This document shows, piece after piece, positions 13,541 to 63,674 of a DNA stretch of 64,000 nt. The first letter of the stretch is position 1. The number at the start of each line of letters is the position of its first letter. The notes beneath the pieces are model-generated. The model worked only from the letters and a program-made list of their open reading frames with translations. It did no database searches and had not been told where the DNA came from. Source of the DNA: Squalus acanthias (taxonomy: Eukaryota); assembly GCA_030390025.1 (NCBI GenBank), contig CM059431.1:139440001-139504000 (forward strand), written 5' to 3'. The translations under genes were made by a program, and so were the position numbers.

Positions 13541-13594
13541 ACTATTTAGGTTAGATTAATAAGACCAGATGTGTTAAACATTAACAGAGTATCG

Positions 13595-13850: not shown

Positions 13851-14060
13851 AACTGATGGAGACCAGCAGTGGGTTAAGTCTCGATATCCCCTGTCTAAAA
13901 TGGACTGCCCTCAGTCACAGTCTGAGCCCACACTCACAGAATAGCCGCATCCCCGGCGCTGGCGAACACATCCGTCCGCGGGATACTGGCCGTAGAGAGG
14001 AAGGGAGAAAATAAAATCATAAAACACAGGAATGAAGCTTCGAGGCTACATTAACCTTAC

Positions 14061-14255
14061 CTTGATCCCGCAAGAAGATTCTGTCACTATTTCCGTGTAG
14101 ATTTTGCGAGTTATATCCTTGTTATTTCACTGCATCCAATCAGGTAGAAGTTCCTTGTTTGATTTTAGCAAGTCACAACTTGTGAATTTGATCTGATCTT
14201 TGTTTTGTGAGACTCAGAGCTCCGCCCTCTGTGTGAAAGCTGCTGCCCGCCCTCA
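14061..14255 (-). promoter_or_regulatory. Putative Pol II promoter plus short first exon, copy 1
   Basis: GC boxes CCGCCC at 14222-14227 and 14247-14252, CCAAT at 14136-14140, TATA-like GGATATAAC (minus) at 14110-14118, donor AAG|GTAAGG with GT at 14060-14059. Confidence 0.5.
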
Positions 14256-15119
14256 GGGTGGATTTCAAGTCAAACAATGCTCATTCGCTTCAGAACAGGG
14301 AGCGGCCTTTCTTGTCAAATCCAACCGGTTTGACAATTCGCTGCCGCTTCAAATGTGAACAAAGTTAATTATAAAATTTACTTTATGTTTGCTTGTTCCA
14401 GGGAAGTTCAGTGAAACAGAGGCAGGTTAGAAATAAATTGTGACATTTCCACCAGGAAAATTGCTAAAATTCCCTTTAATTTCCTAATGTTTGCGCCTTT
14501 ATCCCACGGCCCAATAGCCAGTGTCTTTTCAGTCAGCTGAGAGGAGACTGTTCTTTACGTGAGGCTTTAAACATTTAACCGCCGAATTCAACTATCCCTG
14601 AGCGTCAATCGACTCAGCTATTGGGGGAATGAGTACTGACTTTCCACAGTTACATTGGTCATTGGACATCTGCAGAAGATACATCCGTTTCATTGTTAGA
14701 CAGAAAAAGGACCATTCCTGTGATGTAGTCGGTATACATTTTGGTATCTCCTTATTTTCAGGGTGGTTGTCAGACTATAATAAATATGCCCTTCCCCGGG
14801 ATGGAGGTGTCTGAAGCCAGGAACTGTTTGAGGACAGATTCCGAGGGGCAGATTGCGATATTTCCTTTTTCTGGTTAATTTCCCCTCTATTTTGTGATCA
14901 AGATTAAGGATTCACTCGGGCGGGGGCACAGCCTGAAGCGGCGGTTCCAAACATCCCCCAATATTTTTTGTCTTCGTGTGAACTCTCTCGCTTGTTTCAC
15001 GCTATTGTTGTTTTAAGCTGAGCGTTTACTATTCTACGAAAAATTCACCCGAACAGGTTAATTCACTGTAAAATGATGGGTAAATGGTGGGTTTGCATGC
15101 AGCCGGATTGCATTAATTG

Positions 15120-27785: not shown

Positions 27786-27826
27786 GTGAAATATTACGTT
27801 GTTAAAAGTAGTAACCTCCTCCCGAC

Positions 27827-27963
27827 AATTTCAGAGTCTGAATAAACTTCCTTCCTCCACAAATTCCTCCACTGCCTGTTCTCTTCTATCCCGAGTGGAC
27901 ATCATTAATTGGTAAGCTGACAATCGTCGAAAATGCAGCATCTCGGCAGCTGTGGGCTTTGAA
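27827..27963 (-). other. Putative non-coding exon 2, copy 2 (137 bp, weakened donor)
   Basis: Acceptor ..CTGTTCACAG| retained; donor changed to AATT|GTCGGG; small internal deletions. Confidence 0.45.
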
Positions 27964-30876
27964 CTGTGAACAGTAAGTCAGGGAGAGAAAGGCCATGTAC
28001 ATTACCCATGTGAATTTCAAACTATATTATTGCTGGGGATTACAGCATTTTAGATTTAGTTAACAACCATTTCAGTATAGCCTACTAATTCAGTGATTTA
28101 ACTCATTTGAGGCCTGTTTATTGGGGTTTCTATGTATTTCTGGTCAGTTTTTTGTTGCTGCGGTTTATACCCAATTCAGTTAGATTAAGTTATTTACCAA
28201 TGATTGATAGAGGCCTGGAGGGACCAGATAGAAACTCGCTGTGGAGACCAGAATAGGAGTCATAGTTAATTATTTAGAAGAGCTGATATATACTGAGAGT
28301 GGAAGTAGGCTCGGTGCTGTGGAAGTAGAAGAGAGATTTGGGGATACAGATTGAAAGGACATTAAAAGCAACACCTCAGGTTGAGAAATTGGGAAAGAAG
28401 CTGAGGAAATTCTAGGTTAAATCACGAGGTATAGAATATAAAACCCAAGAGGTAAGAATGAGCCTATATAAAATTTTAGTAAGTCCTCAGTTAGAATTAT
28501 GTGTTTAAATATTGAACGTTGGTGTTTCTTTGGTTAAAACAACGCAGATTGTGGGGCAATATGATAGAAGTTTTTACAATTATGAATCGGTGGGACAAGG
28601 TTGCTGGAGGTTGTAACTATCTGTGTTAGTTTAATAATGCCAAATGTGATACCCACTCGGAGGCAGCTTTGTGCCTATTGATAATTTGTGTAGTTAGTTG
28701 TTAGCAACAGTGTAGTGATGGGGCTCTATTGAAAATGTGAGTAATTATTTTCATTTAAAGATTAGTAATGGAGATCCGCCTAACTTTTCGTAATTTGAGT
28801 CGTTTCTTTATATGTAAAGATTAGTCTTGGAACGAAATTCACACAAACAAAGTAATTCAGTGTTAGATGGAGAGTGTGGATAAATTGTGGGTTTGTGTGC
28901 AGGCGGTGGTCATTAATTGAGGTGCTTAAAATGATAAAAGGATTCTATAGAGAAGATCCAGAGAGAGATTGTCTCTGGTGGTAGAATCCAGAACAAAAGG
29001 GGACATTATTAAAATTAGATCTAGGCTGTTCAGGTGTGAAATCAGGAAGCATTTAATCACACAAAGGGTAGTGGAAATGTGAATATCTCTCCTGCAAAAA
29101 GCTTTGGATTCTGTGTCAATTGAATTTTTAAAGAGAGATTTTTTATCAGGGAAGGGTATCAAGCGAAATGAATTCAAGGCAGGTAACAGCAGTTGAAGCA
29201 CAGATGAGTCATGATCTAATTAACTGGCAGAACGGGTTTGAGAGGTTGGATCGCCTCCGCCTGTTTCTATGTTCCTCCATTTAATCATCGGCTGGATGAT
29301 AATTTCCAGCATTTGTTCAATGTGAAGATTAACCGGAGTTTCTGGACAATGACTTCAGCATTGGAGGGTTTGAATACCCCCTTTAAACGGATGTGATTGG
29401 CTGATTTTTATTTAAGGCTGAGCTCCATCTGGCGTGAATTTCACAGAATTCCAGGCCAGTAAAGATCAGATAACCGGTGCGGGAGAATCGAGGGAAAACT
29501 TTGCAAAATATAGTTCAATAAAATCACACGGATTGTGTCCAGTCAGATTTAAACAGTGAGGCCCGAAACTTACTTGAGGTTTTATTTTAGGGTCGGTCAA
29601 AAGTTCAATAAAAGTGATTCTCTATCGATAGATTTTATATACAAATGTCCTGTAATTTCCGATTTCATGACCTGCTCAAACGCTAACCTGATGTGTTACA
29701 TGATGGCTCCTGGGCTGGCAGCTCCCTGGTCAGCACCTTTGCTGTGCTACTCAATCCTTGGCCATCCGTTGCCCTTTCTCCCCCAGTCTCCTCCCTTCCA
29801 CTGGTTAATTTCCCCTGGCTCTAATAGTTGGTGCATTTTATCCCTAAGTCGAAGTTAACTGCTAGTTTAAAGTTGCCTGGGTCAAATGCCCATCCCCCCA
29901 CCATGCCTGCTCTTTGGTTCTCTGAGTGCGCTCTGCACCTTTGCTCAAATTCAGCTTCCAAATTCCTGGTCTTCAACACTGCGCCTCTTTACTGGACTAC
30001 ACTGCAGTTCGCAGCTGCTGTGTCTCTGATCTGCTATTCAGTTGCTAAGTTTTACGGTAACTTTGTCTAGCCTACAGCCCATCCCCCACCGCCGCTGTTA
30101 CCTGTTGAGTTTGTGATTGTCCGAATGGTTTTTCAGCTTCAACTTGAGCCTGGTTTCTGTTCATAAATTCACTCTCTTGGGCCGAAGTCCACTTCTCTTC
30201 CGCCTCTGGATCTTATTCTGATCTCCAACTGCGACAACGTTTGTCTGCACCGCTATCGATTCTGCTCATCTCTCAACTCTTCACTCACATGGAAATACCT
30301 CCAGCAGTGCGTCCTCTGGTACTCTACCCTTTACACAGCTTCAGGACTCACTCACCCTCCACACCTGGCTCCGAACCTGGACATCATTCTATCAATGCTC
30401 CGAGCTGAGTCCACCCTACCTACGGCAACATATCCCATCGCGGGCCCTGTGACACTAACTCTGAGCTCCTTCCTATTGCCTCATCTCTATTCATCAACAT
30501 GCAACCAGGCCTATGTAACTTGAGTATCCTGTGTCCATTCGCCTGCGCATTTTGGCTGCCGCTCTGGACACAAGCCCATCCCTCCTACTTTCCTATTATC
30601 CTATTTTACTGTTCTTTTTACCCCTTCTAGACCCCTTCTCCAGTCGTCATGCCTCGTTTCATTTTTCCACTCTCGGGTACTCTTTACTCCCAGATCCCAA
30701 CCATAAACCTTCAGCACTCCTCGACCTTCCTACTCTCCTGTCGCTTCCCCAGGAAGCAATCGGTCTTAGAAAATCCTACAGCTTTCCTCTGTTTCCATCT
30801 TGGCCTCCTCTGAAGGGCACATCGAGGCCCTTGTCGCTGTCTCCTTACGAGCAGCAACATTAACTGTCTCGTCCTA

Positions 30877-34830: not shown

Positions 34831-34844
34831 ACAAATTAAAATAA

Positions 34845-40542: not shown

Positions 40543-40686
40543 CAATTACGAGTCTGAATAAACGACGGCCCTCTACAAATTCCTCCACTGCTTGTTCTCT
40601 TCTCTTTTATCCCGAGTGGCCATCATGAACTTCGAAAGCTGGCAATCGTCGAAAATGCAGCATCTCGGCAGTTGTGGGGCTTCGAA
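40543..40686 (-). other. Putative non-coding exon 2 (144 bp), copy 3
   Basis: Acceptor CCTTTTTCTCCCTGACTTGCTGTTCACAG|, donor ATTG|GTAAGG; same length as copy 1. Confidence 0.62.
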
Positions 40687-41956
40687 CTGTGAACAGCAAG
40701 TCAGGGAGAAAAAGGACTGTTATATTAGCCATCTGGGCATTATAGCAATTTGGGTTAGTTTGTTAATGCAGGAGGTTATCGTCATTTAAGCATAACCTAC
40801 TCATTTCAGAGAATTAACTCATTTGAGGCCAGTTTATTGGGGTTTCTATGTATTTGTGGTTAGTTTAGTGTTGCTGTGGTTTATACCCAATTGAGTTAGA
40901 TTAATTAATTTACTAATGTTTCACAGAGGCCTAGAGGGACTCGCATGGAAACTGGCTGTGGAGATTAGAATAGGAGAGAGAGTTACTTTTTTAGAAGAGA
41001 TGTAATCATACTCTGAATGGAAGACGGCTCGCTGCTGTGGAAGAGCAGATAGATTTGGTGATGCAGATTGAAAGGACATTAAAAGTAACACCTGAGGTTG
41101 AGAACGTCGTGAAGAAACTGATGACATTTTAGGTTTAAGCGCGAGGTATAGAATATGAAACCCAAAAGGTAGCGATGAGCCTATATAAAGCTTTAATAAG
41201 ACCTCAGTTAGAGTTTTGTCTGTAGTATTGAGCTCTGCACTATAGGAAGGATGGAGACTTTAGAGATGGTTAAACGCAGATTCACTGGGGTGCAGCCTGG
41301 TCTGAGGCACCACAAATATGCAGAAAGCTTTGAACGTTGTTGCTTCTTTTGGTTAAAACAACGCAGATTGTGGGGCAACATGATAGAAGTGTTTACAATT
41401 ATGAATCAGTCAGACAAGGTTGCTGGAGTGTGTAACTATTTGTGTTATTTAAAATAATGCCAAATGTGATAACCACTAGCAGGTCGCTTCGTGCCTGTTG
41501 GTAATTTGTGTAGTTAGTTGTTAGCAACAGAGTAGTGATGGGGCTCTATTGAAAATGTCAGTAATTATTTTCATTAAAAGATTAGTAATGGAAACCCGCC
41601 TACCTTTTAATAATTTGAGTAGTTTCTTTCTATGTAAAGATTAGTGATGGGACGCTCCTACCTGTTGGTAATCTGAGTAGTTCGTTTTTGTATAAAGAGC
41701 AGTGATGGAATCCTGCAATCTTATGGTAATTTGAGAGTCGGTGAGGAGACTGGTGAACACCAGGAGTGGGTTTAGCCTCGATATCCCCTGTGTAAAATGG
41801 ACCTCCCTCAGTCATAGCCTGAGCCCACATTCACAGAAAACCTGCATCCCCGGCGCTGGGGAACACATCAGTCCGCGGGATACTGGCCGTAGAGAGGAAG
41901 GTGGAAATAAAATCAGAAAACACAGAAATGAAGCTTCGAAGCTACATTAACCTTAC

Positions 41957-42150
41957 CTTCATCACGCGAGTTTTTTTCTGTCTCTATTTCCGTGTTGTTT
42001 TTGCGAGTTATATCCTTGTTATTTCACTGCAACTAATCAGGTAGAAGTTCCTTGTTTGATTTTAGCAAGTCACAAATTGTGAATTTGATCTGATCCTTGT
42101 TCTGTGTGACTCAAAGCTCCGCCCTCTGTGTGAAATCTGCTGCCCGCCCA
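41957..42150 (-). promoter_or_regulatory. Putative promoter plus first exon, copy 3 (left arm, fires leftward)
   Basis: GC boxes 42119-42124 and 42144-42149, CCAAT changed to CTAAT, TATA-like 42007-42015, donor AAG|GTAAGG with GT at 41956-41955. Confidence 0.48.
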
Positions 42151-43269
42151 AAGGATGGATTTCAACTCAAACATTTATCTTTTGCTTCAGAACAGTGAAC
42201 GGCCTTTCTGGTCAAATCAAATCCAACCGGTTTGACAATTCGATTCCGCCTAATCTATGAACAAAGTTAGTTATAAATTTGACTTTATATCGTCTTATTC
42301 CAGGGAAGTTCAGTGAATCAGATACATGGTTAGAAATAAAATGTCACATTTCCATCTGGGATATTGTTTGCTAAAAGTCTCATCGATTTCCTGATGTTTG
42401 GGCTTTGAGCCCAGGCTCCCAGAGCCAGTGTCTTGTCAGTGAGCTGAGGAGAGGCTGTTTCTGTACATGAGGACATTAACCATTTAACCGCCGAATTAAA
42501 CTGTCCCTGAGCATCAATCGACTCAGCTACTGGAGGAATGAGTACTGACTTTCCACAGTTACATTTAACATTGTAAATCTCCAGCAGACACACCCGTTAC
42601 ATTGTTAGACACAGAAAGGGCCATTCCTTTGCTGTAGTTGTTATAAAGGTTGTTCTTTCCTCATTTTCAGGGTGGTTCTCTGACAATAATATATATCCCC
42701 TCCCCGGGATGGAAGTGACCGAGTGGAAGTGTTTGAAGATAGTTTGTGGTGATAATTCCGAGGGCAGATTGCGATATTTCCCATTTTCTCGCTAATCTGC
42801 CCCTCGGAGTTATCAGCAACATCTACTCTCCAACACTTTCTCTCCGACACTTCCATCTCGGGAAGGGGATATTTATTACTGACTGATAACCACCTTGAAA
42901 ATGAGGAAAGTGCAACCTTTATAACAGCTACAGCACGTGGGTGATCTTTACTGTATAGTTTCATTCGGCGTTAAATGTTTGATGTCCTCGCGGACAGAAA
43001 CAGCCACCTCTCAGCTGACGGACAAGGCACTGGCTCTTGGGCACTGGGATCAACGCGCAAACATCAGGAAATCGATGTGAATTTTAGCAAACACTATCCC
43101 AGATGGAAATGTAACAATTTATTTCTAACCATGTGTCTATTTTACTGAACTTCCCTGGAACAAGAAGAGATAAAGCTAAATCTATAACTAACTATGTTCA
43201 CACGTGAAGTGGGAGCAAATTCTCAAACCGCTACAGTTTGCATTGTCCAGAAAGGCCGCTCCCTGTTCT

Positions 43270-43506
43270 GACGCCAATGAGGAACGTTGGAGTTGAAGTC
43301 CATCGCGCGGGCTGGCAGCAGTTTTCACACAGAGGGCGGAGCTCTGAGTCTCACAAAACAAGGATCAGATCAAATTCACAATTTGTGCGTTGCTCAAATA
43401 AAAACGTACTTCCACCTGATTGGCTGTAGTGAAATAACAAGGATATAACTTGTGAAATCTACACGGAAATAGAGAGATGGAAAATTCTTGCGGCATCAGG
43501 GTAAGG
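43270..43506 (+). promoter_or_regulatory. Putative promoter plus first exon (right arm, fires rightward)
   Basis: CCAAT 43274-43278, GGGCGG 43334-43339, ATTGG 43419-43423, GGATATAAC 43441-43449, donor AGG|GTAAGG at 43501. Confidence 0.5.
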
Positions 43507-43914
43507 TTAATATAAATTCTAAGAATAATTTCTGTGTTTTATTTCATTTCTCCCCTCTAAAGCCTAAATCCAACGGTCGGATGTGTTCCACAGCGACGGG
43601 GATGCAGCTGTACTGTGAGTGTGAGCAAAGACTGTGAGTGAGGGCAGTCCATTTTACACCGGGGATTTCAGGGTTAAACAGACTCCTTTTATCCCCCAGT
43701 TTCCCGACAGACACATTTTAAAGCGGTTGCTGGACAGAAAACAGGAACGTGAAATATTGGGATTTACCTTATCCTCGAATTCACAGTTCAAACAGACAGA
43801 ACAGTGCCCTTCTAACTCGTTATGATTCTTTTTATGTAATGCACTCACTAAACCGTTTGGTATCCAATATTTTTAATTGATCAAAGATGGGATCAGAAGT
43901 TCAGACCGAACAAA

Positions 43915-44302: not shown

Positions 44303-47300
44303 CGCTGTGCTCTCTTGTACTGAACATGTTGTCGCTGTGCTCTCTTGTACTGAACATGTTGTCGCAGTGCTCTCTTGTACTAAACATGCTGTCACTGTGC
44401 TCTCTTGTACTGAACATGTTGTCGCTGTGCTCTCTTGTACTAAACATGTTGTAGCTGTGCTCTCTTGAACTAAACATGTTTTCGCTGTGCTCTCTTGAAC
44501 TAAACATGTTGTCGCTGTGCTCTCTTGAACTAAACATGTTGTCGCTGTGTTCTCTTGTACTGAACATGTTGTCGCTGTGCTCTCTTGTACTAAACATGTT
44601 GTCGCTGTGCTCTCTTGTACTGAACATGTTGTCACTGTGTTCTCTTGTACTAAACATGTTGTCGCTGTGCTCTCTTGTACTGAACATGTTGTCGCTGTGT
44701 TCTCTTGTACTGAACATGTTGTTGCTTTGCTCTCTTGTACTGAACATGTTGTCGTTGTGCTCTCCTGTACTAAACATGTTGTCGCTGTGCTCTCTTGTAC
44801 TGAACATGTTGTCGATGTGCTCTCTTGTAGTGAACATATTGTCACTGTGCTCTCTTGTACTAAACATGTTGTCGCTGTGCTCTCTTGTACTAAACATGTT
44901 GTCACTGTGCTCTCTTGTACTAAACATGTTGTCGCTGTGCTGTCTTGAACTAAACATGTTGTCACTGTGCTCTCTTGTACTGAACATGTTGTCGCTGTGC
45001 TCGCTTGAACTAAACATGTTAACACTGTGCTCTCCTGTACTGAACATGCTGTCGCTGTCCTCTCTTGTACAAAATATGCTGTCACTGTGCTCTCTTGTAC
45101 TGAACATGTTGTCGCTTTGCTCTCTTGTACTAAACATGTTGTCGCTGCGCTATCTTGTACTAAACATGTTGTTGCTGTGATGTGTTTTACTGTACATGTT
45201 GTCGCTGTGCTCTCTTGAACTAAATGTGTTGTCGCAGTGCTCATGTGTACTAAACATGTTGTCGCTGTGCTCTCTTGTACTGAACATGTTGTCGCTGTGC
45301 TCTCTTGTACTGAACATGTTGTCGCAGTGCTCTCTTGTACTAAACATGCTGTCACTGTGCTCTCTTGTACTGAACATGTTGTCGCTGTGCTCTCTTGTAC
45401 GAAACATGTTGTAGCTGTGCTCTCTTGAACTAAACATGTTTTCGCTGTGCTCTCTTGAACTAAACATGTTGTCGCTGTGCTCTCTTGAACTAAACATGTT
45501 GTCGCTGTGTTCTCTTGTACTGAACATGTTGTCGCTGTGCTCTCTTGTACTAAACATGTTGTCGCTGTGCTCTCTTGTACTGAACATGTTGTCACTGTGT
45601 TCTCTTGTACTAAACATGTTGTCGCTGTGCTCTCTTGTACTGAACATGTTGTCGCTGTGTTCTCTTGTACTGAACATGTTGTTGCTTTGCTCTCTTGTAC
45701 TGAACATGTTGTCGTTGTGCTCTCCTGTACTAAACATGTTGTCGCTGTGCTCTCTTGTACTGAACATGTTGTCGATGTGCTCTCTTGTAGTGAACATATT
45801 GTCACTGTGCTCTCTTGTACTAAACATGTTGTCGCTGTGCTCTCTTGTACTAAACATGTTGTCACTGTGCTCTCTTGTACTAAACATGTTGTCGCTGTGC
45901 TGTCTTGAACTAAACATGTTGTCACTGTGCTCTCTTGTACTGAACATGTTGTCGCTGTGCTCGCTTGAACTAAACATGTTGTCACTGTGCTCTCCTGTAC
46001 TGAACATGCTGTCGCTGTCCTCTCTTGTACAAAATATGCTGTCACTGTGCTCTCTTGTACTGAACATGTTGTCGCTTTGCTCTCTTGTACTAAACATGTT
46101 GTCGCTGCGCTATCTTGTACGAAACATGTTGTTGCTGTGATGTGTTTTACTGTACATGTTGTCGCTGTGCTCTCTTGAACTAAATGTGTTGTCGCAGTGC
46201 TCATGTGTACTAAACATGTTGTCGCTGTGCTCTCTTGTACTGAACATGTTGCCGCTGTGCTCTCTTGTACTGAACATGTTGTCGCTGTGCTCTCTTGTAC
46301 TGAACATGTTGTTGCTGTGCTGTCTTGAACTAAACATGTTGTCGCTGTGCTCTTTTGTACTGAACATGTTGTTGCTGTGCTCTGTTGTACTAAACATGCT
46401 GTCACTGTGCTCTCTTGTACTAATGATGTTGTCGCTTTGCTCTCTTGTACTAACCATGTTGTCGCGGTGCTCTCTTGTACTGAACAGGTTGTCACTCTGC
46501 TCTCTTGTACTAAACATGTTGTCTCTGTGCTCTCATTTACTAAACATGTTGTTGCTGTGCTCTCTTGTACTGAACAAGTTGTTGCTGTGCTCTCTTGTAC
46601 TAAACATGTTATCGCTGTGCGCTCTTGAACTAAACATGTTGTCGCTGTGCTCTCTTGTACTGAACATGTTGTCGCTGTGCTCTCTTGTACTGAACAGGTT
46701 GTCACTCTGCTCTCTTGTACTAAACATGTTGTCTCTGTGCTCTCTTTTACTAAACATGTTGTTGCTGTGCTCTCTTGTACTGAACAAGTTGTTGCTGTGC
46801 TCTCTTGTACTAAACATGTTATCGCTGTGCGCTCTTGAACTAAACATGTTGTCGCTGTGCTCTCTTGTACTGAACATGTTGTTGCTGTGCTCTCTTGAAC
46901 TAAACATATTGTCACTGTGCTCTCTTGTACTGAACATGCTGTCGCTGTGCTCTCTTGTACTGAACATGTTGTCGCTGTGCTCTCTTGTACCGAACATGTT
47001 GTCACTGTGCTCTCTTGTACTGAACATGTTGTCACTGTGCTCTCTTGTACTGAACATGTTGTCGCTGTGCTCTCTTGTACTGATCATGTTGTCGCTGTGC
47101 TCTCTTGTACTGATCATGTTGTCGCTGTGCTCTCTTGTACTGAACATGTTGTCGCTGTGCTCTCTTGTACTAAACATGTTGTCACTGTGCTCTCTTGTAC
47201 TAAATATGTTGTCGCTGTGCTCTCTTGTACTAAACATGTTGTCACTGTGCTCTCTTGTACTAAATATGTTGTCGAGTGCTCTCTTGTACTGAACATGTTG

Positions 47301-50300
47301 TCGCTGTGATGTCTTGTACTGAACATGTTGTCGCTGTGCTCTCTTGTACTGAACATGTTGTCGCTGTGCTCTCTTGTACTAAACATGTTGTCTCTGTGCT
47401 CTCTTGTACTGAACATGTTGTCGCTGTGCTCTCTTGTACTGAACATGTTGTTGCTGTGCTGTCTTGTACTGAACATGTTGTCGCTCTGCTCTCTTGTACT
47501 GAACATGTTGTCACTGTGATGTCTTGTACTGAACATGTTGTTGCTGTGCTCTCTTGTACTAAACATGTTGTCGCTGTGCTCTCTTGTACTGAACATGTTG
47601 TCGCTGTGCTCTCTTGTACTGAACATGTTGTCGCTGTGCTCTCTTGTACTTAATATGTTGTCGCTGTGCTCTCTTGTACAGAACATGTTTTCGCTGTGCT
47701 CTGTTCTACTGAACATGTTGTCGCTGTGCTCTCTTGTACTGAACATGTTGTCGCTGTGCTCTCTTGTACTGAACATGTTGTCACTGTGCTGTCTTGTACT
47801 GAACATGTTGTCGCTGTGCTCTCTTGTACTGAACATGTTGTCGCTGTGCTCTCTTGTACTGAACATGTTGTCACTGTGCTGTCTTGCACTGAACATGTTG
47901 TCGCTGTGCCCTCTTGTGCTGAACATGTTGTCACTGTGCTCTCTTGTGCTGAACATGTTGTCACTGTGCTCTCTTGTACTGAACATGTTGTCGCTGTGCT
48001 CTCTTCTCCTGAACATGTTGTCGCTGCGCTCTCTTGTGCTGAACATGTTGTCACTGTGCTCTCTTGTACTGAACATGTTGTCACTGTGCACTCTTTTACT
48101 GAACATGTGGTCGCTGTGCTCTCTTCTACTGAACATGCTGTCGCTGTGCTCTCTTGTACTGAACATGTTGTTGCTGTGCTCTCTTGTACTGAACATGTTG
48201 TTGCTGTGCTCTCTTGTACCGAACATGTTGTCGCTGTGCTCTCTTGTACTGATCATGTTGTCGCTGTGCTCTCTTGTACTGATCATGTTGTCGCTGTGCT
48301 CTCTTGTACTGATCATGTTGTCGCTGTGCTCTCTTGTACTGAACATGTTGTCACTGTGCTCTCTTGTACTGAACATGTTGTCACTGTGCTCTCTTGTACT
48401 GAACATGTTGTCACTGTGCTCTCTTGTACTGAACATGTTGTCGCTGTGCTCTCTTGTACCGAACATGTTGTCGCTGTGCTCTCTTGTACTGATCATGTTG
48501 TCGCTGTGCTCTCTTGTACTGATCATGTTGTCGCTGTGCTCTCTTGTACTGAACATGTTGTCGCTGTGCTCTCTTGTACTAAACATGTTGTCACTGTGCT
48601 CTCTTGTACTAAATATGTTGTCGAGTGCTCTCTTGTACTGAACATGTTGTCGCTGTGATGTCTTGTACTGAACATGTTGTCGCTGTGCTCTCTTGTACTG
48701 AACATGTTGTCGCTGTGCTCTCTTGTACTGAACATGTTGTCGCTGTGCTCTCTTGTACTGAACATGTTGTTGCTGTGCTGTCTTGTACTGAACATGTTGT
48801 CGCTCTGCTCTCTTGTACTGAACATGTTGTTGCTGTGCTCTCTTGTACTGAACATGTTGTTGCTGTGCTGTCTTGTACCGAACATGTTGTCGCTGTGCTC
48901 TCTGGTACTGAACATGTTGTTGCTGTGCTGTCTTGTACTGAACATGTTGTCGCTCTGCTCTCTTGTACTGAACATGTTGTCGCTGTGCTCTCTTGTACTG
49001 AACATGTTGTCGCTCTGCTCTCTTGTACTAAACATGTTGTCGCTGTGCTCGCTTGTACTAAACATGTTGTCGCTGTGCTGTCTTGTACTGAACATGTTGT
49101 CACTGTGATGTCTTGTACTGAACATGTTGTTGCTGTGCTGTCTTGTACTAAACATGTTGTCGCTGTGCTCTCTTGTACTGAACAAGTTGTCGCTGTGCTC
49201 TCTTGTACTAAACATGTTGTCGCTGTGCTCGCTTGTACTAAACATGTTGTCGCTGTGCTGTCTTGTACTGAACATGTTGTCACTGTGATGTCTTGTACTG
49301 AACATGTTGTTGCTGTGCTGTCTTGTACTAAACATGTTGTCGCTGTGCTCTCTTGTACTGAACATGTTGTCGCTGTGCTCTCTTGTACTTAATATGTTGT
49401 CGCTGTGCTCTCTTGTACAGAACATGTTTTCGCTGTGCTCTCTTGTACTGAACATGTTGTCGCTGTGCTCTCTTGTACTGAACATGTTGTCGCTGTGCTC
49501 TCTTGTACTGAACATGTTGTCACTGTGCTCTCTTGTACTGAACATGTTGTCGCTGTGCTCTCTTGTACTGAACATGTTGTCGCTGTGCTCTCTTGTACTG
49601 AACATGTTGTCACTGTGCTGTCTTGTACTGAACATGTTGTCGCTGTGCCCTCTTGTGCTGAACATGTTGTCACTGTGCTCTCTTGTACTGAACATGTTGT
49701 CGCTGTGCTCTCTTGTGCTGAACATGTTGTCACTGTGCTCTCTTGTACTGAACATGTTGTCGCTGTGCTCTCTTCTCCTGAACATGTTGTCGCTGCGCTC
49801 TCTTGTGCTGAACATGTTGTCACTGTGCTCTCTTGTACTGAACATGTTGTCACTGTGCACTCTTTTACTGAACATGTGGTCGCTGTGCTCTCTTCTCCTG
49901 AACATGTTGTCGCTGTGCACTCTTTTACTGAACATGTTGTCGCTGTGCTCTCTTCTACTGAACATGCTGTCGCTGTGCTCTCTTGTACTGAACATGTTGT
50001 TGCTGTGCTCTCTTGTACTGAACATGTTGTTGCTGTGCTCTCTTTTACTGAACATGTTGCTGCTGTGCTCTCTTGTACTGAATATTATGTCGCTGTGCTC
50101 TCTTGTACTAAACCTGTTGTCACTGTACTGTCTTGTACTGAACATGTTGTCGCTGTGCTCTCATGTACTGAACATGTTGTCTCTGTGCTCTCTTGTACTG
50201 TATATGCTGTCACTGTGCTCTCTTGTACTGAACATGTTGTCGCCGTGCTCTCTTGTACTGAACATGTTGTTGCTGTGCTCTCTTGTACTGAACATGTTGC

Positions 50301-53300
50301 TGCTGTGCTCTCTTGTACTGAACATGTTGTCGCTGTGCACTCTTGTACTGAACATGTTGTCACTGTGCTCTCTTGTACTGAACATGTTGTCACTGTGCAC
50401 TCTTGTACTGAACATGTTGTCACTGTGCTCTCTTGTACTAAACATGTTGTCGCTGTGCTTTCTTGTACTGAACATGTTGTTGCTGTGCTCTCTTGTACTG
50501 ATCTGTTGTCACTGTGCTCTCTTGTACTGAACATGTTGTTGCTGTGCTCTCTTGTACTGAACATGTTGTCACTGTGCTCTCTTGTACTGAACATGTTGTT
50601 GCTGTGCTCTCTTGTACTGAACATGTTGTCGCTGTGCACTCTTGTACTGAACATGTTGTCACTGTGCACTCTTGTACTGAACATGTTGTCACTGTGCTCT
50701 CTTGTACTAAACATGTTGTCGCTGTGCTTTCTTGTACTGAACATGTTGTTGCTGTGCTCTCTTGTACTGATCTGTTGTCACTGTGCTCTCTTGTACTGAA
50801 CATGTTGTTGCTGTGCTCTCTTGTACTGAACATGTTGTCGCTGCGCTCTCTTGTACTAAACATGTTGTCGCTATGCTCTCTTGTACTGAACATGCTGTCA
50901 CTGTGCTCTCTTGAAGTAAACATGTTGTCGCTGCCCTCTGTTGTACTGAACTTGTTGTCACTGTGAACTCTTGAACTAAACATGTTGTCGCTGTGCCCTC
51001 TCGTACTGATGATGTTGTCACTTTGCTCTCTTGAACTAAACATGTTGTCGCTGTGCTCTCTTGTACAAAACATGTTGTCGCTGTGCTCTCTTGATCTAAA
51101 CATTTTGTCGCTTTGCTCTCTTGTACTGAACATGTTGTCGCTGTGCACTCTTTTACTGAATATGTTGTCGCTGTGCTCTCTTGTACTGAACATGTTGTCA
51201 TTGTGCTCTCTTGTACTGAACATGTTGTCGCTGTGCTCTCTTGTACTGAACATGTTGTCGCTGTGCTCTCTTGTACTGAACATGTTGTCACTGTGCTCTC
51301 TTGTACAGAACATGTTGTCACCGTGATCTCTTTTACTAAACATGTTGTCGCTGTGCTCTCTTGTACTGAACATGTTGTTGCTGTGCTCTCTTGAAGTAAA
51401 CATGTTGTCGCTGCCCTCTGTTGTACTGAACTTGTTGTCACTGTGAACTCTTGAACTAAACATGTTGTCGCTGTGTCCTCTTGTACTGATGATGTTGTCG
51501 CTTTGCTCTCTTGAACTAAACATGTTGTCGCTGTGCTCTCTTGATCTAAACATGTTGTCGCTGTGCTCTCTTGTACTGAACATGTTGTCGCTGTGCTCTC
51601 TTGTACCGAACATGTTGTCGCTGTGCTCTCTTGTACTGATCATGTTGTCGCTGTGCTCTCTTGTACTGATCATGTTGTCGCTGTGCTCTCTTGTACTGAA
51701 CATGTTGTCGCTGTGCTCTCTTGTACTAAACATGTTGTCACTGTGCTCTCTTGTACTAAATATGTTGTCGCTGTGCTCTCTTGTACTAAACATGTTGTCA
51801 CTGTGCTCTCTTGTACTAAATATGTTGTCGAGTGCTCTCTTGTACAAAACATGTTGTCGCTGTGATGTCTTGTACTGAACATGTTGTCGCTGTGCTCTCT
51901 TGTACTGAACATGTTGTCGCTGTGCTCTCTTGTACTAAACATGTTGTCTCTGTGCTCTCTTGTACTGAACATGTTGTCGCTGTGCTCTCTTGTACTGAAC
52001 ATGTTGTTGCTGTGCTGTCTTGTACTGAACATGTTGTCGCTCTGCTCTCTTGTACTGAACATGTTGTCGCTCTGCTCTCTTGTACTAAACATGTTGTCGC
52101 TGTGCTCTCTTGTACTAAACATGTTGTCACTGTGATGTCTTGTACTGAACATGTTGTTGCTGTGCTCTCTTGTACTAAACATGTTGTCGCTGTGCTCTCT
52201 TGTACTGAACATGTTGTCGCTGTGCTCTCTTGTACTGAACATGTTGTCGCTGTGCTCTCTTGTACTTAATATGTTGTCGCTGTGCTCTCTTGTACAGAAC
52301 ATGTTTTCGCTGTGCTCTGTTCTACTGAACATGTTGTCGCTGTGCTCTCTTGTACTGAACATGTTGTCGCTGTGCTCTCTTGTACTGAACATGTTGTCGC
52401 TGTGCTCTCTTGTACTGAACATGTTGTCGCTGTGCTCTCTTGTACTGAACATGTTGTCACTGTGCTGTCTTGTACTGAACATGTTGTCGCTGTGCCATCT
52501 TGTGCTGAACATGTTGTCACTGTGCTCTCTTGTGCTGAACATGTTGTCACTGTGCTCTCTTGTACTGAACATGTTGTCGCTGTGCTCTCTTCTCCTGAAC
52601 ATGTTGTCGCTGCGCTCTCTTGTGCTGAACATGTTGTCACTGTGCTCTCTTGTACTGAACATGTTGTCACTGTGCACTCTTTTACTGAACATGTGGTCGC
52701 TGTGCTCTCTTCTACTGAACATGCTGTCGCTGTGCTCTCTTGTACTGAACATGTTGTTGCTGTGCTCTCTTGTACTGAACATGTTGTTGCTGTGCTCTCT
52801 TGTACCGAACATGTTGTCGCTGTGCTCTCTTGTACTGATCATGTTGTCGCTGTGCTCTCTTGTACTGATCATGTTGTCGCTGTGCTCTCTTGTACTGATC
52901 ATGTTGTCGCTGTGCTCTCTTGTACTGAACATGTTGTCACTGTGCTCTCTTGTACCGAACATGTTGTCACTGTGCTCTCTTGTACTGAACATGTTGTCAC
53001 TGTGCTCTCTTGTACTGAACATGTTGTCGCTGTGCTCTCTTGTACCGAACATGTTGTCGCTGTGCTCTCTTGTACTGATCATGTTGTCGCTGTGCTCTCT
53101 TGTACTGATCATGTTGTCGCTGTGCTCTCTTGTACTGAACATGTTGTCGCTGTGCTCTCTTGTACTAAACATGTTGTCACTGTGCTCTCTTGTACTAAAT
53201 ATGTTGTCGAGTGCTCTCTTGTACTGAACATGTTGTCGCTGTGATGTCTTGTACTGAACATGTTGTCGCTGTGCTCTCTTGTACTGAACATGTTGTCGCT

Positions 53301-56300
53301 GTGCTCTCTTGTACTGAACATGTTGTCGCTGTGCTCTCTTGTACTGAACATGTTGTTGCTGTGCTGTCTTGTACTGAACATGTTGTCGCTCTGCTCTCTT
53401 GTACTGAACATGTTGTTGCTGTGCTCTCTTGTACTGAACATGTTGTTGCTGTGCTGTCTTGTACTGAACATGTTGTCGCTGTGCTCTCTTGTACTGAACA
53501 TGTTGTTGCTGTGCTGTCTTGTACTGAACATGTTGTCGCTCTGCTCTCTTGTACTGAACATGTTGTCGCTGTGCTCTCTTGTACTGAACATGTTGTCGCT
53601 CTGCTCTCTTGTACTAAACATGTTGTCGCTGTGCTCTCTTGTACTAAACATGTTGTCGCTGTGCTCTCTTGTACTGAACATGTTGTCACTGTGATGTCTT
53701 GTACTGAACATGTTGTTGCTGTGCTCTCTTGTACTAAACATGTTGTCGCTGTGCTCTCTTGTACTGAACATGTTGTCGCTGTGCTCTCTTGTACTGAACA
53801 TGTTGTCGCTGTGCTCTCTTGTACTTAATATGTTGTCGCTGTGCTCTCTTGTACAGATCATGTTTTCGCTGTGCTCTCTTGTACTGAACATGTTGTCGCT
53901 GTGCTCTCTTGTACTGAACATGTTGTCGCTGTGCTCTCTTGTACTGAACATGTTGTCACTGTGCTGTCTTGTACTGAACATGTTGTCGCTGTGCTCTCTT
54001 GTACTGAACATGTTGTCGCTGTGCTCTCTTGTACTGAACATGTTGTCACTGTGCTGTCTTGTACTGAACATGTTGTCGCTGTGCCCTCTTGTGCTGAACA
54101 TGTTGTCACTGTGCTCTCTTGTACTGAACATGTTGTCGCTGTGCTCTCTTGTGCTGAACATGTTGTCACTGTGCTCTCTTGTACTGAACATGTTGTCGCT
54201 GTGCTCTCTTCTCCTGAACATGTTGTCGCTGCGCTCTCTTGTGCTGAACATGTTGTCACTGTGCTCTCTTGTACTGAACATGTTGTCACTGTGCACTCTT
54301 TTACTGAACATGTGGTCGCTGTGCTCTCTTCTCCTGAACATGTTGTCGCTGTGCACTCTTTTACTGAACATGTTGTCGCTGTGCTCTCTTCTACTGAACA
54401 TGCTGTCGCTGTGCTCTCTTATACTGAACATGCTGTTGCTGTGCTCTCTTGTACTGAACATGTTGTTGCTGTGCTCTCTTTTACTGAACATGTTGCTGCT
54501 GTGCTCTCTTGTACTGAATATTATGTCGCTGTGCTCTCTTGTACTAAACCTGTTGTCACTGTACTGTCTTGTACTGAACATGTTGTCGCTGTGCTCTCAT
54601 GTACTGAACATGTTGTCTCTGTGCTCTCTTGTACTGTATATGCTGTCACTGTGCTCTCTTGTACTGAACATGTTGTCGCCGTGCTCTCTTGTACTGAACA
54701 TGTTGTTGCTGTGCTCTCTTGTACTGAACATGTTGCTGCTGTGCTCTCTTGTACTGAACATGTTGTCGCTGTGCACTCTTGTACTGAACATATTGTCACT
54801 GTGCTCTCTTGTACTGAACATGTTGTCACTGTGCACTCTTGTACTGAACATGTTGTCACTGTGCTCTCTTGTACTAAACATGTTGTCGCTGTGCTTTCTT
54901 GTACTGAACATGTTGTTGCTGTGCTCTCTTGTACTGATCTGTTGTCACTGTGCTCTCTTGTACTGAACATGTTGTTGCTGTGCTCTCTTGTACTGAACAT
55001 GTTGTCACTGTGCTCTCTTGTACTGAACATGTTGTTGCTGTGCTCTCTTGTACTGAACATGTTGTCGCTGTGCACTCTTGTACTGAACATGTTGTCACTG
55101 TGCACTCTTGTACTGAACATGTTGTCACTGTGCTCTCTTGTACTAAACATGTTGTCGCTGTGCTTTCTTGTACTGAACATGTTGTTGCTGTGCTCTCTTG
55201 TACTGATCTGTTGTCACTGTGCTCTCTTGTACTGAACATGTTGTTGCTGTGCTCTCTTGTACTGAACATGTTGTCGCTGCGCTCTCTTGTACTAAACATG
55301 TTGTCGCTATGCTCTCTTGTACTGAACATGCTGTCACTGTGCTCTCTTGAAGTAAACATGTTGTCGCTGCCCTCTGTTGTACTGAACTTGTTGTCACTGT
55401 GAACTCTTGAACTAAACATGTTGTCGCTGTGCCCTCTCGTACTGATGATGTTGTCACTTTGCTCTCTTGAACTAAACATGTTGTCGCTGTGCTCTCTTGT
55501 ACAAAACATGTTGTCGCTGTGCTCTCTTGATCTAAACATTTTGTCGCTTTGCTCTCTTGTACTGAACATGTTGTCGCTGTGCACTCTTTTACTGAATATG
55601 TTGTCGCTGTGCTCTCTTGTACTGAACATGTTGTCATTGTGCTCTCTTGTACTGAACATGTTGTCGCTGTGCTCTCTTGTACTGAACATGCTGTCGCTGT
55701 GCTCTCTTGTACTGAACATGTTGTCATTGTGCTCTCTTGTACTGAACAAGTTGTCACTGTGCTCTCTTGTACAGAACATGTTGTCACCGTGATCTCTTTT
55801 ACTAAACATGTTGTCGCTGTGCTCTCTTGTACTGAACATGTTGTTGCTGTGCTCTCTTGAAGTAAACATGTTGTCGCTGCCCTCTGTTGTACTGAACTTG
55901 TTGTCACTGTGAACTCTTGAACTAAACATGTTGTCGCTGTGTCCTCTTGTACTGATGATGTTGTCGCTTTGCTCTCTTGAACTAAACATGTTGTCGCTGT
56001 GCTCTCTTGATCTAAACATGTTGTCGCTTTGCTCTCTTGTACTGAACATGTTGTCGCTGTGCTCTCTTGTACTGAACATGTTGTCACTGTACTCTCTTGT
56101 ACTGAACATGCTGTCGCTGTGCTCTCTTTTACTGAACATGTTGCTGCTGTGCTCTCTTGTACTGAACATGTTGTTGCTGTGCTCTCTTTTACTGAACATG
56201 TTGCTGCTGTGCTCTCTTGTACTGAACATGTTGTCACTGTGCTCTCTTGTACTGAACATGCTGTCGCTGTGCTCTCTTGTACTGAATATGTTGTCGCTGT

Positions 56301-59300
56301 GCTCTCTTTTACTGAACATGTTGCTGCTGTGCTCTCTTCTACTGAACATGTTGTCGCTGTGCTCTCTTGTACTAAACATGTTGTCACTGTGCTCTCTTGT
56401 ACTGAACATGCTGTCGCTGTGCTCTCTTCTACTGAACATGTTGTCGCTGTGCTCTCTTGTACTGAACATGCTGTCGCTGTGCTCTCTTGTACTGAAAATG
56501 TTGTCGCTGTGCTCTCTTGTACTGAACATGTTGTCACTGTGTTCTCTTGTACTAAACATGTTGTCGTTGTGCTCTCTTGTACTGATCATGTTGTCACTGT
56601 GATCTCTTTTACTAAACATGTTGTCGCTGTGCTCTCTTGTACTGAACATGTTGTTGCTGTGCTCTCTTGAAGAAAACATGTTGTCGCTGCCCTCTGTTGT
56701 ACTGAACTTGTTGTCACTGTGAACTCTTGAACTAAACATGTTGTCGCTGTGCTCTCTTGTACTGATGATGTTGTCGCTTTGCTCTCTTGAACTAAACATG
56801 TTGTCGCTGTGCTCTCTTGATCTAAACATGTTGTCGCTTTGCTCTCTTCTACTGAACATGTTGTCACTGTGCTCTCTTGTACTGAACATGTTGTCGCTGT
56901 GATGTCTTTTACTGAATATGTTGTCGCTGTGCTCTCTTCTACTGAACATGTTGTCGCTGTGCTCTCTTGTACTGAACATGTTGTCACTGTGCTCTCTTGT
57001 ACTGAACATGTTGTCACTGTGCTCTCTTGTACTGAACATGTTGTCGCTGTGATGTCTTTTACTGAATATGTTGTCGCTGTGCTCTCTTCTACTGAACATG
57101 TTGTCGCTGTGCTCTCTTGTACTGAACATGTTGTCACTGTACTCTCTTGTACTGAACATGCTGTCGCTGTGCTCTCTTGTACTGAATATGTTGTCGCTGT
57201 GCTCTCTTTTACTGAAAAAGTTGCTGCTGTGCTCTCTTGTACTGAACATGTTGTTGCTGTGCTCTCTTTTACTGAACATGTTGCTGCTGTGCTCTCTTGT
57301 ACTGAACATGTTGTCACTGTGCTCTCTTGTACTGAATATGTTTTAGCTGTGCTCTCTTGTACTGAACATGTTGTCACTGTACTCTCTTCTACTGAACATG
57401 TTGTCGCTGTGCTCTCTTGTACTGAATATGTTTTAGCTGTGCTCTCTTGTACTAAACATGTTGTCACTGTGCTCTCTTGGACTGATCATGTTGTCACTGT
57501 GCTCTCTTGTACTGAACATGCTGTCGCTGTGCTCTCTTGTACTGAACATGTTGTCGCTGTGCTCTCTTGTACTGAACATGTTGTTGCTGTGCTCTCTTGT
57601 ACTGAACATGTTGTCGCTGTGCTCTCTTGTACTAAACATGTTGTCGCTGTGCTCTCTTGTACTGAACATGTTGTTGCTGTGCTCTCTTGTACTAAACATG
57701 TTGTTGCTGTGCTCTCTTGTACTGATCATGTTGTCACTGTGATCTCTTTTACTAAACATGTTGTCGCTGTGCTCTGTTGTACTGAACTTGTTGTCACTGT
57801 GAACTCTTGAACTAAACATGTTGTCGCTGTGCCCTCTTGATCTAAACATGTTGTCGCTTTACTCTCTTGAACTAAACATGTTGTCGCTGTGCTCTCTTGA
57901 TCTAAACATGTTGTCGCTTTACTCTCTTGTACTGAACATGTTGTCGCTGTGCACTCTTTTACTGAATATGTTGTCGCTGTGCTCTCTTCTACTGAACATG
58001 TTGTCACTGTACTCTCTTGTACTGAACATGCTGTCGCTGTGCTCTCTTGTACTGAATATGTTGTCGCTGTGCTCTCTTTTACTGAACATGTTGCTGCTGT
58101 GCTCTCTTGTACTGAACATGTTGTTGCTGTGCTCTCTTTTACTGAACATGTTGCTGCTGTGCTCTCTTGTACTGAACATGCTGTCACTGTACTCTCTTGT
58201 ACTGAACATGCTGTCGCTGTGCTCTCTTGTACTGAATATGTTGTCGCTGTGCTCTCTTTTACTGAACATGTTGCTGCTGTGCTCTCTTGTACTGAACATG
58301 TTGTCACTGTACTCTCTTGTACTGAACATGCTGTCGCTGTGCTCTCTTGTACTGAATATGTTGTCGCTGTGCTCTCTTTTACTGAACATGTTGTCACTGT
58401 ACTCTCTTGTACTGAACATGCTGTCGCTGTGCTCTCTTGTACTGAATATGTTGTCGCTGTGCTCTCTTTTACTGAACATGTTGCTGCTGTGCTCTCTTGT
58501 ACTGAACATGTTGTTGCTGTGCTCTCTTTTACTGAACATGTTGCTGCTGTGCTCTCTTGTACTGAACATGTTGTCGCTGTGCTCTCTTGTACTGAATATG
58601 TTTTAGCTGTGCTCTCTTGTACTAAACATGTTGTCACCGTGCTCTCTTGGACTGATCATGTTGTCGCTGTGCTCTCTTGTACTGAATATGTTTTAGCTGT
58701 GCTCTCTTGTACTAAACATGTTGTCACTGTGCTCTCTTGGACTGATCATGTTGTCGCTGTGCTCTCTTGTACTGAACATGTTGTTGCTGTGCTCTCTTGT
58801 ACTGATCATGTTGTCACTGTGCTCTCTTGTACTGAACATGTTGTCACTGTGATCTCTTTTACTAAACATGTTGTCGCTGTGCTCTCTTGTACTGAACATG
58901 TTGTTGCTGTGCTCTCTTGAATTAAACATGTTGTCGCTGTGCTCTCTTGTACTGAACATGTTGTTGCTGTGCTCTCTTGTACTGAACATGTTGTCGCTGT
59001 GCCCTGTTGTACTGATGATGTTGTCACTTTGCTCTCTTGAACTAAACATGTTGTCGCTGTGCTCTCTTGTACAAAACATGTTGTCGCTGTGCTCTCTTGA
59101 TCTAAACATATTGTCGCTTTGCTCTCTTGTACTGAACATGTTGTCGCTGTGCACTCTTTTACTGAATATGTTGTCGCTGTGCTCTCTTCTACTGAACATG
59201 TTGTCGCTGTGCTCTCTTGTACTGAACATGTTGTCACTGTACTCTCTTGTACTGAACATGCTGTCGCTGTGCTCTCTTGTACTGAATATGTTGTCGCTGT

Positions 59301-60084
59301 GCTCTCTTTTACTGAACATGTTGCTGCTGTGCTCTCTTGTACTGAACATGTTGTTGCTGTGCTCTCTTTTACTGAACATGTTGCTGCTGTGCTCTCTTGT
59401 ACTGAACATGTTGTCACTGTACTCTCTTCTACTGAACATGTTGTCGCTGTGCTCTCTTGTACTGAATATGTTTTAGCTGTGCTCTCTTGTACTAAACATG
59501 TTGTCACTGTGCTCTCTTGGACTGATCATGTTGTCACTGTGCTCTCTTGTACTGAACATGTTGTCACTGTACTCTCTTGTACTGAACATGCTGTCGCTGT
59601 GCTCTCTTGTACTGAACATGTTGTCGCTGTGCTCTCTTGTACTGAACATGTTGTTGCTGTGCTCTCTTGTACTGAAAATGTTGTCGCTGTGCTCTCTTGT
59701 ACTGAACATGTTGTCACTGTGCTCTCTTGTACTAAACATGTTGTCGCTGTGCTCTCTTGTATTGAACATGTTGTTGCTGTGCACTCTTGTACTGATCATG
59801 TTGTCACTGTGCTCTCTTGTACTGAACATGTTGTTGCTGTGATCTCTTTTACTAAACATGTTGTCGCTGTGCTCTCTTGTACTGAACATGTTGTTGCTGT
59901 GCTCTCTTGTACTGAACATGTTGTTGCTGTGCTCTCTTGTACTGAACATGTTGTTGCTGTGCTCTCTTGTACTAAACTTGTTGTCGCTGTGCTCTCTTGT
60001 ACTGAACATGTTGTCGCTGTGCTCTCTTGTACTGAACATGTTGTCGTTGTTCTCTCTTGTACTAAACATGTTGTCGCTTTGCTC
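44303..60084. repeat. 30-bp satellite GCTGTGCTCTCTTGTACTGAACATGTTGTC, ~525 monomers, with higher-order repeats
   Basis: Directly visible strict 30-bp register, broken only by rare 29- and 28-bp variants. Confidence 0.99.
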
Positions 60085-60721: not shown

Positions 60722-61495
60722 ATGAGGAGCTTGGCTCGGTGTCCCTACAGGCGGCTGATACTGAGCTCAGTCGTGTGCGGACTCTCTCTCACTTTCCTTT
60801 GTCGATATTTGTGCAAGAGAGAAATTCCATTCTTAAACTACTGGACAACAGTTAAACTAAAACCAGTTTACGATGCTCGATATGAATCCCTCGATCTGTC
60901 AGAGGAGAACTCGAGTTGTTGGAAGATAATTATTGGTGACCCGGAAGCATTTCAATACGTTATTTTAAACTCGATCACAATTGCAAACAAATATAAGGCC
61001 TTCACAGAAAGCGAATACTTAAAAATGACCCGAGACTGCGATTCTTTTGCGAAAACCCGCAAATACATCACTTTCCCCTTAAGTGCCGAGGAACGCGATT
61101 TCCCTCTGGCTTATTCTCTGGTGGTCAATGAAAACATCGAGATGTTTGAGAGGCTCCTGCGAGGCATTTACGCTCCTCAAAACATGTACTGTGTCCATGT
61201 GGACAGGAAGTCTCGAAAGCCGTTTCACTCGGCGGTCCAGGCCATCGTTTCCTATTTCACTAATGTCTTCATTGTCGGAAAATCGGAGTCAGTGACGTAC
61301 GCCTCATGGTCCAGAGTTCAGGCTGATCTGAACTGGATGGAAGAGCTGCTGCGGAGCTCTGTCCCGTGGAGATACCTCATCAATGTTTGTGGAAAAGACT
61401 ATCCAATAAAAACCAACCGGGATATAGTCAACAGTCTCATGGCCATGAACGGCTCAAATGTTATAGAGTCGGACCCTCCACCGCGATACAAACAG
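60722..61495 (+). pseudogene. GCNT3: GCNT3-like beta-1,6-N-acetylglucosaminyltransferase (GT14), coding exon 1; probably inactivated
   Basis: Type II TM segment; TRDC..F..RKYI.FPLS.EE.DFPLAYS, FERLLR.IYAPQN.YCVHVD.KS, VTYASWSRVQADLN, W.YLIN.CG.D.PIKTN; ATG at 60722 in GCCATGA context. Confidence 0.85.
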
Positions 61496-63146: not shown

Positions 63147-63674
63147 AGACGATGGAAATTTAATTATGATGTTCGCAAGATTATGGTGAGAACAGATCGA
63201 GTGAAGAGCCCCCCACCCATACGCAGTCCCGTGTTTGTGGGGAGCGCATACGTTCTGCTCACCAGAAAATTTGTGAGTATTTTGTTTGTGAACCCGGAAA
63301 TCCAGGCATTCTGCAAGTGGTCGGAGAATACCTACAGCCCCGATGAACACATCTGGGCCACCCTGCAGAGAATGCCCGAGGTACCCGGCTCCATTCCATA
63401 CACTCGCAGGCACCACATGGGTGACGCACCAGTCCTTACTCGAGCAGTGAAGTGGTCTGTTAATGCTGGAGATACTGCGAAAGGAGCCTTATATCCGCCT
63501 TGTACAGGAAGGTACCGCCATCCGATCTGTGTATATGGGTCTGGAGATCTCCACTGGATCATCCAAAAGAAACCCTTGTTCGCCAATAAGTTTCAGCCAG
63601 AAGTAGACAACACAGCTTTGCAATGTATGTAGGAATATGTCCGACACAGAGCGATTCATGGAACAGGAATTTAA
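63147..63674 (+). pseudogene. GCNT3: GCNT3-like coding exon 2, premature TAG at 63630-63632, ancestral stop at 63672-63674
   Basis: RRWKF..KSPPP..F.GSAY, TYSPDEHIWATLQR, R.VKW, YPPCTG...ICVYG.GDL.W, LFANKF..VDN.ALQCM*EYVRHRAIHGTGI*; acceptor TTTCAG| ending at 63146. Confidence 0.88.

Follow-up and report, generated by a model that had tools for sequence, protein, structure and literature searches.

A mirror-image duplication of ~2 kb lies in a 64-kb stretch of Squalus acanthias DNA (64,000 nucleotides, hereafter the window), and each of its arms carries what resembles the start of a gene, facing outward. The locus raises two questions: how the palindrome arose, and whether its arms act, or once acted, as a divergent promoter pair, as a preliminary description had proposed.

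Geometry and reality of the palindrome

The duplication consists of two arms around a short spacer:

41737..42774, minus strand: left arm, with a promoter-like region, a short first exon and ~220 nt of intron 1, reading leftwards
42789..43712, plus strand: right arm, the inverted copy, reading rightwards
42775..42788, no strand: 14-nt spacer or hairpin loop, which copy A (see below) also has
42505..42610, no strand: 106-nt segment present in the left arm and copy A and missing from the right arm in a three-way alignment

Local alignment of the left half with the reverse complement of the right half, a comparison proposed in the preliminary description, gave 81% identity (762 of 940 ungapped columns) and a score of 1031, compared with 44.5 for the best of 50 shuffles. 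The palindrome had been placed at 41762..43687, with clearly diverged arms and a 14-nt loop at 42775-42788; all of this stands, with arms that reach ~25 nt further, and the indel reported between them is present, its size of ~120 bp being slightly high (106 nt, for a length difference of 114 between the arms). At the centre, the palindrome is predicted to form a DNA hairpin of -24.3 kcal/mol (z -8.2 for the fold against shuffles). Homology is symmetric up to the unduplicated 14-nt spacer, as a fold-back inverted duplication requires, and the suggested origin by inverted duplication is thus supported. The arms are ~0.23 changes per site apart, indicating that the duplication event is old; a date based on a pedigree rate of 7e-10 per generation (PMC10587355) was rejected, as it implies ~1.6e8 generations, an impossible age. 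The outer arm ends are among the least identical parts (70-74%). Among the innermost 28 paired columns (42747-42818), 26 match, which is above the 81% average over a length too short for a conversion test. A degenerate 58-bp tandem repeat (41577-41710) adjoins the outer end of the left arm and also that of the arm in copy A.

Palindromes are a known hazard of genome assembly, and an assembly artefact might have produced this one; we give this a negligible chance. The arms differ at 19% of their sites, and a contig from an independent study of the same organism (run X5) spans 42762-42946 with 3 differences, covering 13 nt of the left arm, the loop and 158 nt of the right arm. The right outer junction (43653-43807) is spanned with 0 differences by a contig of organism B (run X6). 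Among the contigs listed, none extends 31 letters to both sides of the loop. Contigs of 4 of the 14 matching runs were aligned to 40510-44290 at 80% likeness, X5 being 55% covered.

The promoter-like cassette and its relatives

Comparison of the window with itself placed the left arm within a tandemly repeated unit (promoter, exon 1, intron, a non-coding 144-bp exon termed E2, and a minisatellite) with three copies in the window, a context overlooked in the preliminary description:

12608..14887, minus strand: copy A of the unit, with E2, intron, arm, loop and ~17 nt like the start of the right arm; not palindromic
27790..28834, minus strand: copy B of the unit, which retains E2 and a portion of the intron; its arm is deleted and its E2 donor weakened
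40543..40686, minus strand: E2 of copy C, a 144-bp exon-like block with stops in all 3 frames and an acceptor conserved in the three copies
12645..12788, minus strand: E2 of copy A
27825..27963, minus strand: E2 of copy B

Copy A is 84% identical to 40506-42805. Its ~17 nt like the right-arm start include the same extra T and could be the remnant of a lost arm; beyond them, it continues in sequence common to copy B, and its hairpin at the loop is no better than shuffles (z -0.6). The left donor had been paired with a 144-bp exon at 40686, and it does face a conserved acceptor exon, the acceptor of E2 being good and common to the three copies. When stop-free stretches of at least 42 aa were searched in the cassette direction in selected non-satellite parts of the window (a scan that left out the LINE-filled 33300-38550, 15100-17400 and 28900-31600), 0 of 77 reached the Pfam cut-off. 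No coding domain was found left of E2, suggesting that the left cassette would either head a truncated 5' gene fragment or offer another start to a gene located beyond the left edge of the window. Rfam at gathering scores gave 0 matches in the window. A GCNT-like tblastn signal at 14789-14992 (E 0.01-1) was rejected, its score of 1.2 bits with the family profile lying within the range of 20 shuffles (-1.6 to 3.7).

The units span 12608-17432, 27790-31633 and 40506-42805 on the minus strand, and a related minisatellite follows each E2 (2034-12571, 19084-27789 and 39874-40505). After the minisatellite comes a 13-nt microexon-like block (19034-19046 and 1718-1730, both minus strand) that has a GTGAG donor in both places and an acceptor AG in the 19 kb copy only, and that is missing from unit C. 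The deletion in copy B starts within the degenerate 58-bp tandem repeat. Of the three, copy A has preserved its promoter best, and a gene located beyond the left edge of the window may use it. A 39-bp minisatellite (15 copies, 32438-33022) lies between units B and C, and a CR1-type reverse transcriptase frame (Pfam RVT_1, 36266-38455, plus strand, 730 stop-free codons) is found among older broken copies.

E2 may resemble a decayed first exon of the N-terminal death-fold domain of shark NLR genes. An alignment of 5 E2 frames gave 0 matches among 1,365 candidates, and the ESM Atlas gave no usable match, the query being short and frameshifted in both searches; the single match of E2 in an exhaustive profile search, a bacterial TPR protein, was discarded as spurious. 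An expansion of NLRP-related NLR genes in sharks is described in PMC8455134.

None of the 14 runs listed for 40510-44290 is an RNA holder. Run X12, which was guessed to be RNA and may hold DNA, has among the rows listed neither the proposed 41957-40686 joint nor a loose end at 43500; contigs drop short first exons, so this has no bearing on expression. A 472-nt contig of X12 spans E2 and continues unspliced into the intron; its 13 differences and 5 gap letters set it apart from both copy A (15 and 0) and copy B (16 and 7).

Within the arms, the promoter-like and first-exon motifs are as follows:

41984..42135, minus strand: core promoter-like block, best kept over three copies; mirror at ~43323-43472
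42119..42124, minus strand: GC box GGGCGG, left arm
43334..43339, plus strand: GC box GGGCGG, right arm
42007..42015, minus strand: TATA-like GGATATAAC, left arm, within a 23-nt run identical three ways
43441..43449, plus strand: TATA-like GGATATAAC, right arm
42033..42037, plus strand: inverted CCAAT box, left arm, mutated (T at 42034; C in copy A, the right arm and most contigs)
43419..43423, minus strand: inverted CCAAT box, right arm, intact
41951..41956, minus strand: splice donor GTAAGG, left arm, putative exon end 41957
43501..43506, plus strand: splice donor GTAAGG, right arm, putative exon end 43500
42298..42307, no strand: STAT-type TTC-N4-GAA in a 17-nt three-way identical run; mirror 43151-43160, copy A 14396-14405

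The GC box, the TATA-like GGATATAAC and the outward GTAAGG donors are all where they had been reported, and both arms are built like a Pol II promoter followed by a short first exon. Identical runs in the core comprise the donor, a 12-mer, the TATA-like site, a 19-mer and the GC box; the labels ETS-like for the 12-mer and STAT for the TTC-N4-GAA site are provisional. An ATG at 43477 in the right first exon is private to the right arm and gives only short peptides with each candidate acceptor. The ordered GC box, CCAAT box, TATA-like site and donor are conserved in the family and in copy A, and as a trend in each arm. Across copy A and the two arms, 130 of the 150 core columns are identical, against a mean of 74% (p 0.003, 5,000 shuffles). 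The branch of copy A, the only significant one, has a deficit of private changes in the core (2/150 vs 54/718, p 0.0015), while the right arm shows a trend (11/150 vs 83/718, p 0.08) and the left arm has 6/150 vs 51/718 (p 0.11). A conservation scan limited to the two arms was not significant (p 0.10 and 0.16). The cassette looks like a real promoter type, and the evidence for selection sits with the family and copy A, not with the arm pair.

Classical bidirectional promoters of vertebrates lie between head-to-head genes whose starts are within ~1 kb, with one shared core and a CpG island. The palindrome shares with them two outward starts (here predicted), a GC box and CCAAT motifs, but its TATA-like sites are 1,426 bp apart, beyond the spacing of a one-core promoter, each arm has its own motif set, and neither the G+C content (0.43-0.44) nor the observed/expected CpG ratios (0.57 and 0.71) are those of a CpG island. 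With predicted starts ~1.4-1.5 kb apart and motifs that are duplicated rather than shared, the arms would therefore form two back-to-back promoters and not a single shared core. Of the divergent promoter pair originally put forward, two outward cassettes with their motifs remain; the left CCAAT box is lost, there is no shared core and conservation specific to the pair is not significant.

The arm has tens of relatives at 80% identity or more in public DNA contigs, including at least two other labelled organisms, suggesting that the motifs are mostly a family trait. The ratio of summed depth to near-identical depth, a rough ratio and not a copy number, was 51, 58 and 39 in paired core bins (runs X5, X9 and X6, respectively), 72, 21 and 25 on the intron side of the arm, 8, 22 and 4 at the palindrome centre and 4, 4 and 1 in E2, and the high-depth zone stops near the outer arm ends. 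Counts of distinct contigs per site agree with these ratios (9, 25 and 3 at 42107; 11, 20 and 3 at 42034, where these contigs of the three DNA-type runs have C, the intact CCAAT letter). The motifs shared by the arms are inherited from the family and need not imply that the arms function as a pair. The preliminary description had named, as one finding that would speak against it, a high-copy dispersed foldback transposon with no extra motif conservation: the many copies were found, and a foldback transposon of that kind was not borne out. 'Opposite strand' joints in run X9, considered as a palindrome in organism E, were rejected because they come from relatives that fit both arms.

The GCNT3-like gene and possible promoter capture

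A GCNT3-like gene lies 17 kb to the right of the palindrome, beyond a long satellite:

44303..60084, no strand: 30-bp satellite, 526 copies, between the right arm and the GCNT3-like gene
60722..61494, plus strand: GCNT3-like coding exon 1, with Pfam Branch domain, W for an invariant C, and one G short at the donor junction
63147..63674, plus strand: GCNT3-like coding exon 2, with TAG at 63630-63632, 14 codons ahead of TAA at 63672-63674

It has the Branch domain and its best matches are named GCNT3-like (up to 74% to shark proteins of that name). A tree that took in 30 of 128 proteins places it inside a 16-row clade supported at 100/99, and the mammalian, avian and bony-fish rows named GCNT3 branch outside that clade; in other sharks, several GCNT3-like genes lie on one contig. 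Mammalian GCNT3 has a single coding exon, and the paralogue here has an intron within the coding region. This intron holds an inverted pair (62166-62358 and 62605-62797, 193 bp, 88% identical).

The reading frame is not intact. In addition to the TAG at 63630, the cysteine replaced by W is invariant in 9 full-length relatives aligned, and the exon-intron junction is one G short, so that a plain GT-AG splice of 61495-63146 shifts the frame, which is kept only by a GAG acceptor two bases further (intron 61495 to 63146 or 63148). To judge from the sequence, this copy is probably a young pseudogene, unless its lesions (the stop, the C to W change and the junction frameshift) are assembly errors. 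The right cassette had been proposed to splice to an AG at 60472-60473 or 60594-60595; both are usable, but the best pyrimidine tract is elsewhere, ahead of the AG at 60654-60655 (17 of 20 pyrimidines vs 12/20 and 14/20 at the two proposed). A 75-bp tandem duplication (60597-60716) just before the GCNT3-like start creates a short upstream ATG frame at 60658 and the strong acceptor-like AG at 60654-60655. A literature search turned up no paper demonstrating the non-coding 5' exons that human GCNT3 has.

In one reading of the locus, the GCNT3-like gene would use, or would have used until recently, the right arm as its promoter and as a non-coding first exon that is spliced over the satellite; the left arm would be an alternative start for a gene beyond the left edge of the window, and the palindrome a duplication-born divergent pair. 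All four motifs are indeed intact and correctly oriented in the right arm, usable acceptors precede the GCNT3-like exon, and a profile search with the arm over all other parts of the window, satellites excluded by masking, found no additional copy and thus none nearer the gene. Furthermore, the right flank past the arm occurs on 3-8 distinct contigs in organism E, which is the same order as the number of GCNT3-like paralogues per contig in other sharks. There is also a precedent in LRRC37, which acquired promoters by duplication from the unrelated genes BPTF and DND1, with activity established by RACE and reporters (PMC3371713). As there, a duplicated promoter and first exon lie upstream of an unrelated gene; unlike there, the promoter role is a prediction, inversion produced the copy on the spot, and the gene that it faces looks broken. 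Speaking against such a capture are the apparently broken GCNT3-like copy, the core constraint of the right arm, which is not significant by itself (p 0.08), the loss of the left CCAAT box, and predicted starts ~1.4-1.5 kb apart with separate motif sets and no single shared core. We consider this reading doubtful. In a bolder version, one hairpin-primed duplication would have made a presumably NLR-type immune promoter into a back-to-back pair, the mirror copy becoming the first exon of a shark-specific GCNT3-like expansion. Across sharks, the branching of mucin O-glycans and an innate immune receptor family would then share one inducible control. This version strikes us as quite improbable.

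Origin and meaning of the palindrome

The explanation that we favour, at roughly even odds (about 0.5), is that a 5' gene cassette present in many copies was duplicated in inverted form by an old fold-back (hairpin-primed) event, leaving what is today largely a relic. A broken end would have paired with itself through a short, imperfect inverted repeat flanking the 14-nt loop, and the folded-back end would have primed synthesis of the mirror arm. The ~1 kb copied in this way would comprise a Pol II promoter-like region, a short first exon with its GTAAGG donor and ~200 nt of intron 1. The cassette itself may stem from a large shark gene family, possibly of the NLR type. In its present state, the left arm would lead into a truncated 5' fragment or act as an alternative start of reduced strength, with a probable pseudogene in front of the right arm. 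Observed here are the geometry, the non-palindromic tandem twin, the many relatives and the lesions on both sides. Against this explanation, the right arm still has its GC box, CCAAT box, TATA-like site and donor after ~0.23 changes per site, together with the trend in its core (11/150 vs 83/718), and the depth drop near the outer arm ends equally fits a discrete dispersed element.

Sex-chromosome palindromes, which likewise have inverted arms around a spacer, are far larger, and their nearly identical arms are kept alike by arm-to-arm conversion, unlike the arms described here, which are 81% identical. The symmetric homology up to the 14-nt spacer and the short, imperfect inverted likeness in copy A fit hairpin-primed synthesis as presented in Hermetz et al. 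2014 (PMC3907307). The human fold-back inverted duplications of that study are megabase-sized and de novo, with spacers of 766-70,466 bp; they too have two inverted copies, an unduplicated spacer and a short inverted likeness at the spacer edge (here suggested by copy A), whereas the palindrome has a 1-kb arm and a 14-nt spacer and is old and apparently fixed. In yeast, spacers >8 bp make inverted repeats less fragile (PMC8053094), and by analogy a 14-nt spacer, being above 8 bp, may help explain the survival of the palindrome.

The relation of the left arm to copy A changes along the arm. In the outer half, these two are closer to each other (66 vs 21 sites), while in the inner half they are not (28 vs 35 sites; Fisher p 0.00014 for the contrast). 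The idea that the inversion is older than the A/C duplication (94 vs 57 and 56 sites) was dropped because the signal varies in this manner. Alternatively to showing the state before the duplication, copy A may have lost a right arm.

Two readings that treat the arm or the palindrome as a mobile element have to be weighed against a fold-back duplication. In the first, the arm would be a dispersed, LTR-like repeat that has a promoter and a splice donor inside it, like some MaLR LTRs, and a fold-back or head-to-head pair of such units would make up the palindrome. Its length (~0.9-1.0 kb), its many relatives, the fall in depth near the outer arm ends and a sense-strand CA at both arm ends (aligned position 41735/43714) all suit such an element, and a consensus donor occurs in some LTRs (PMC6102241). 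Like the MaLR/MT LTRs of that paper, the cassette is a multi-copy unit of at most ~1 kb with a promoter and a donor able to splice into a downstream gene; unlike them, it has no shared poly(A) signal, target-site duplication or 5' TG end. No poly(A) hexamer is common to the three copies and none lies past the TATA-like site, and neither copy A nor the left arm has a 4-6 nt target-site duplication followed by a TG at a 5' end, although old copies may have lost such ends. Past the donor, copies A and C have intron-like sequence reaching up to a conserved acceptor exon. We judge an LTR-like origin unlikely. Still less probable, to the point of being a long shot, is a foldback DNA transposon that makes up the entire 2 kb, with the arms as its long terminal inverted repeats: it would account for the inverted arms and the many arm relatives, but the outer ends are among the parts of lowest identity (70-74%) where termini should be best kept, the outer flanks have by eye no clear target duplication, depth at the centre is 4-22 times compared with 39-58 times in the core (in contigs that are short), and copy A is a single arm. 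Our literature search, which covered the main texts of mostly open-access papers, turned up nothing on the cassette or on the promoters of shark GCNT3-like genes, and no case of a short palindrome giving rise to a divergent promoter pair.

The palindrome is real and old, and a fold-back duplication carrying a promoter and first exon is a known type of event. As a relic, it provides a clean, small fold-back duplication with a possible pre-duplication twin 28 kb away, which is useful for following the birth and decay of palindromes and not surprising. If the right arm were instead the promoter of shark GCNT3-like genes, the locus would represent a traceable divergent promoter pair born in one step and, if true, a regulatory capture between immune and mucus-glycosylation genes.
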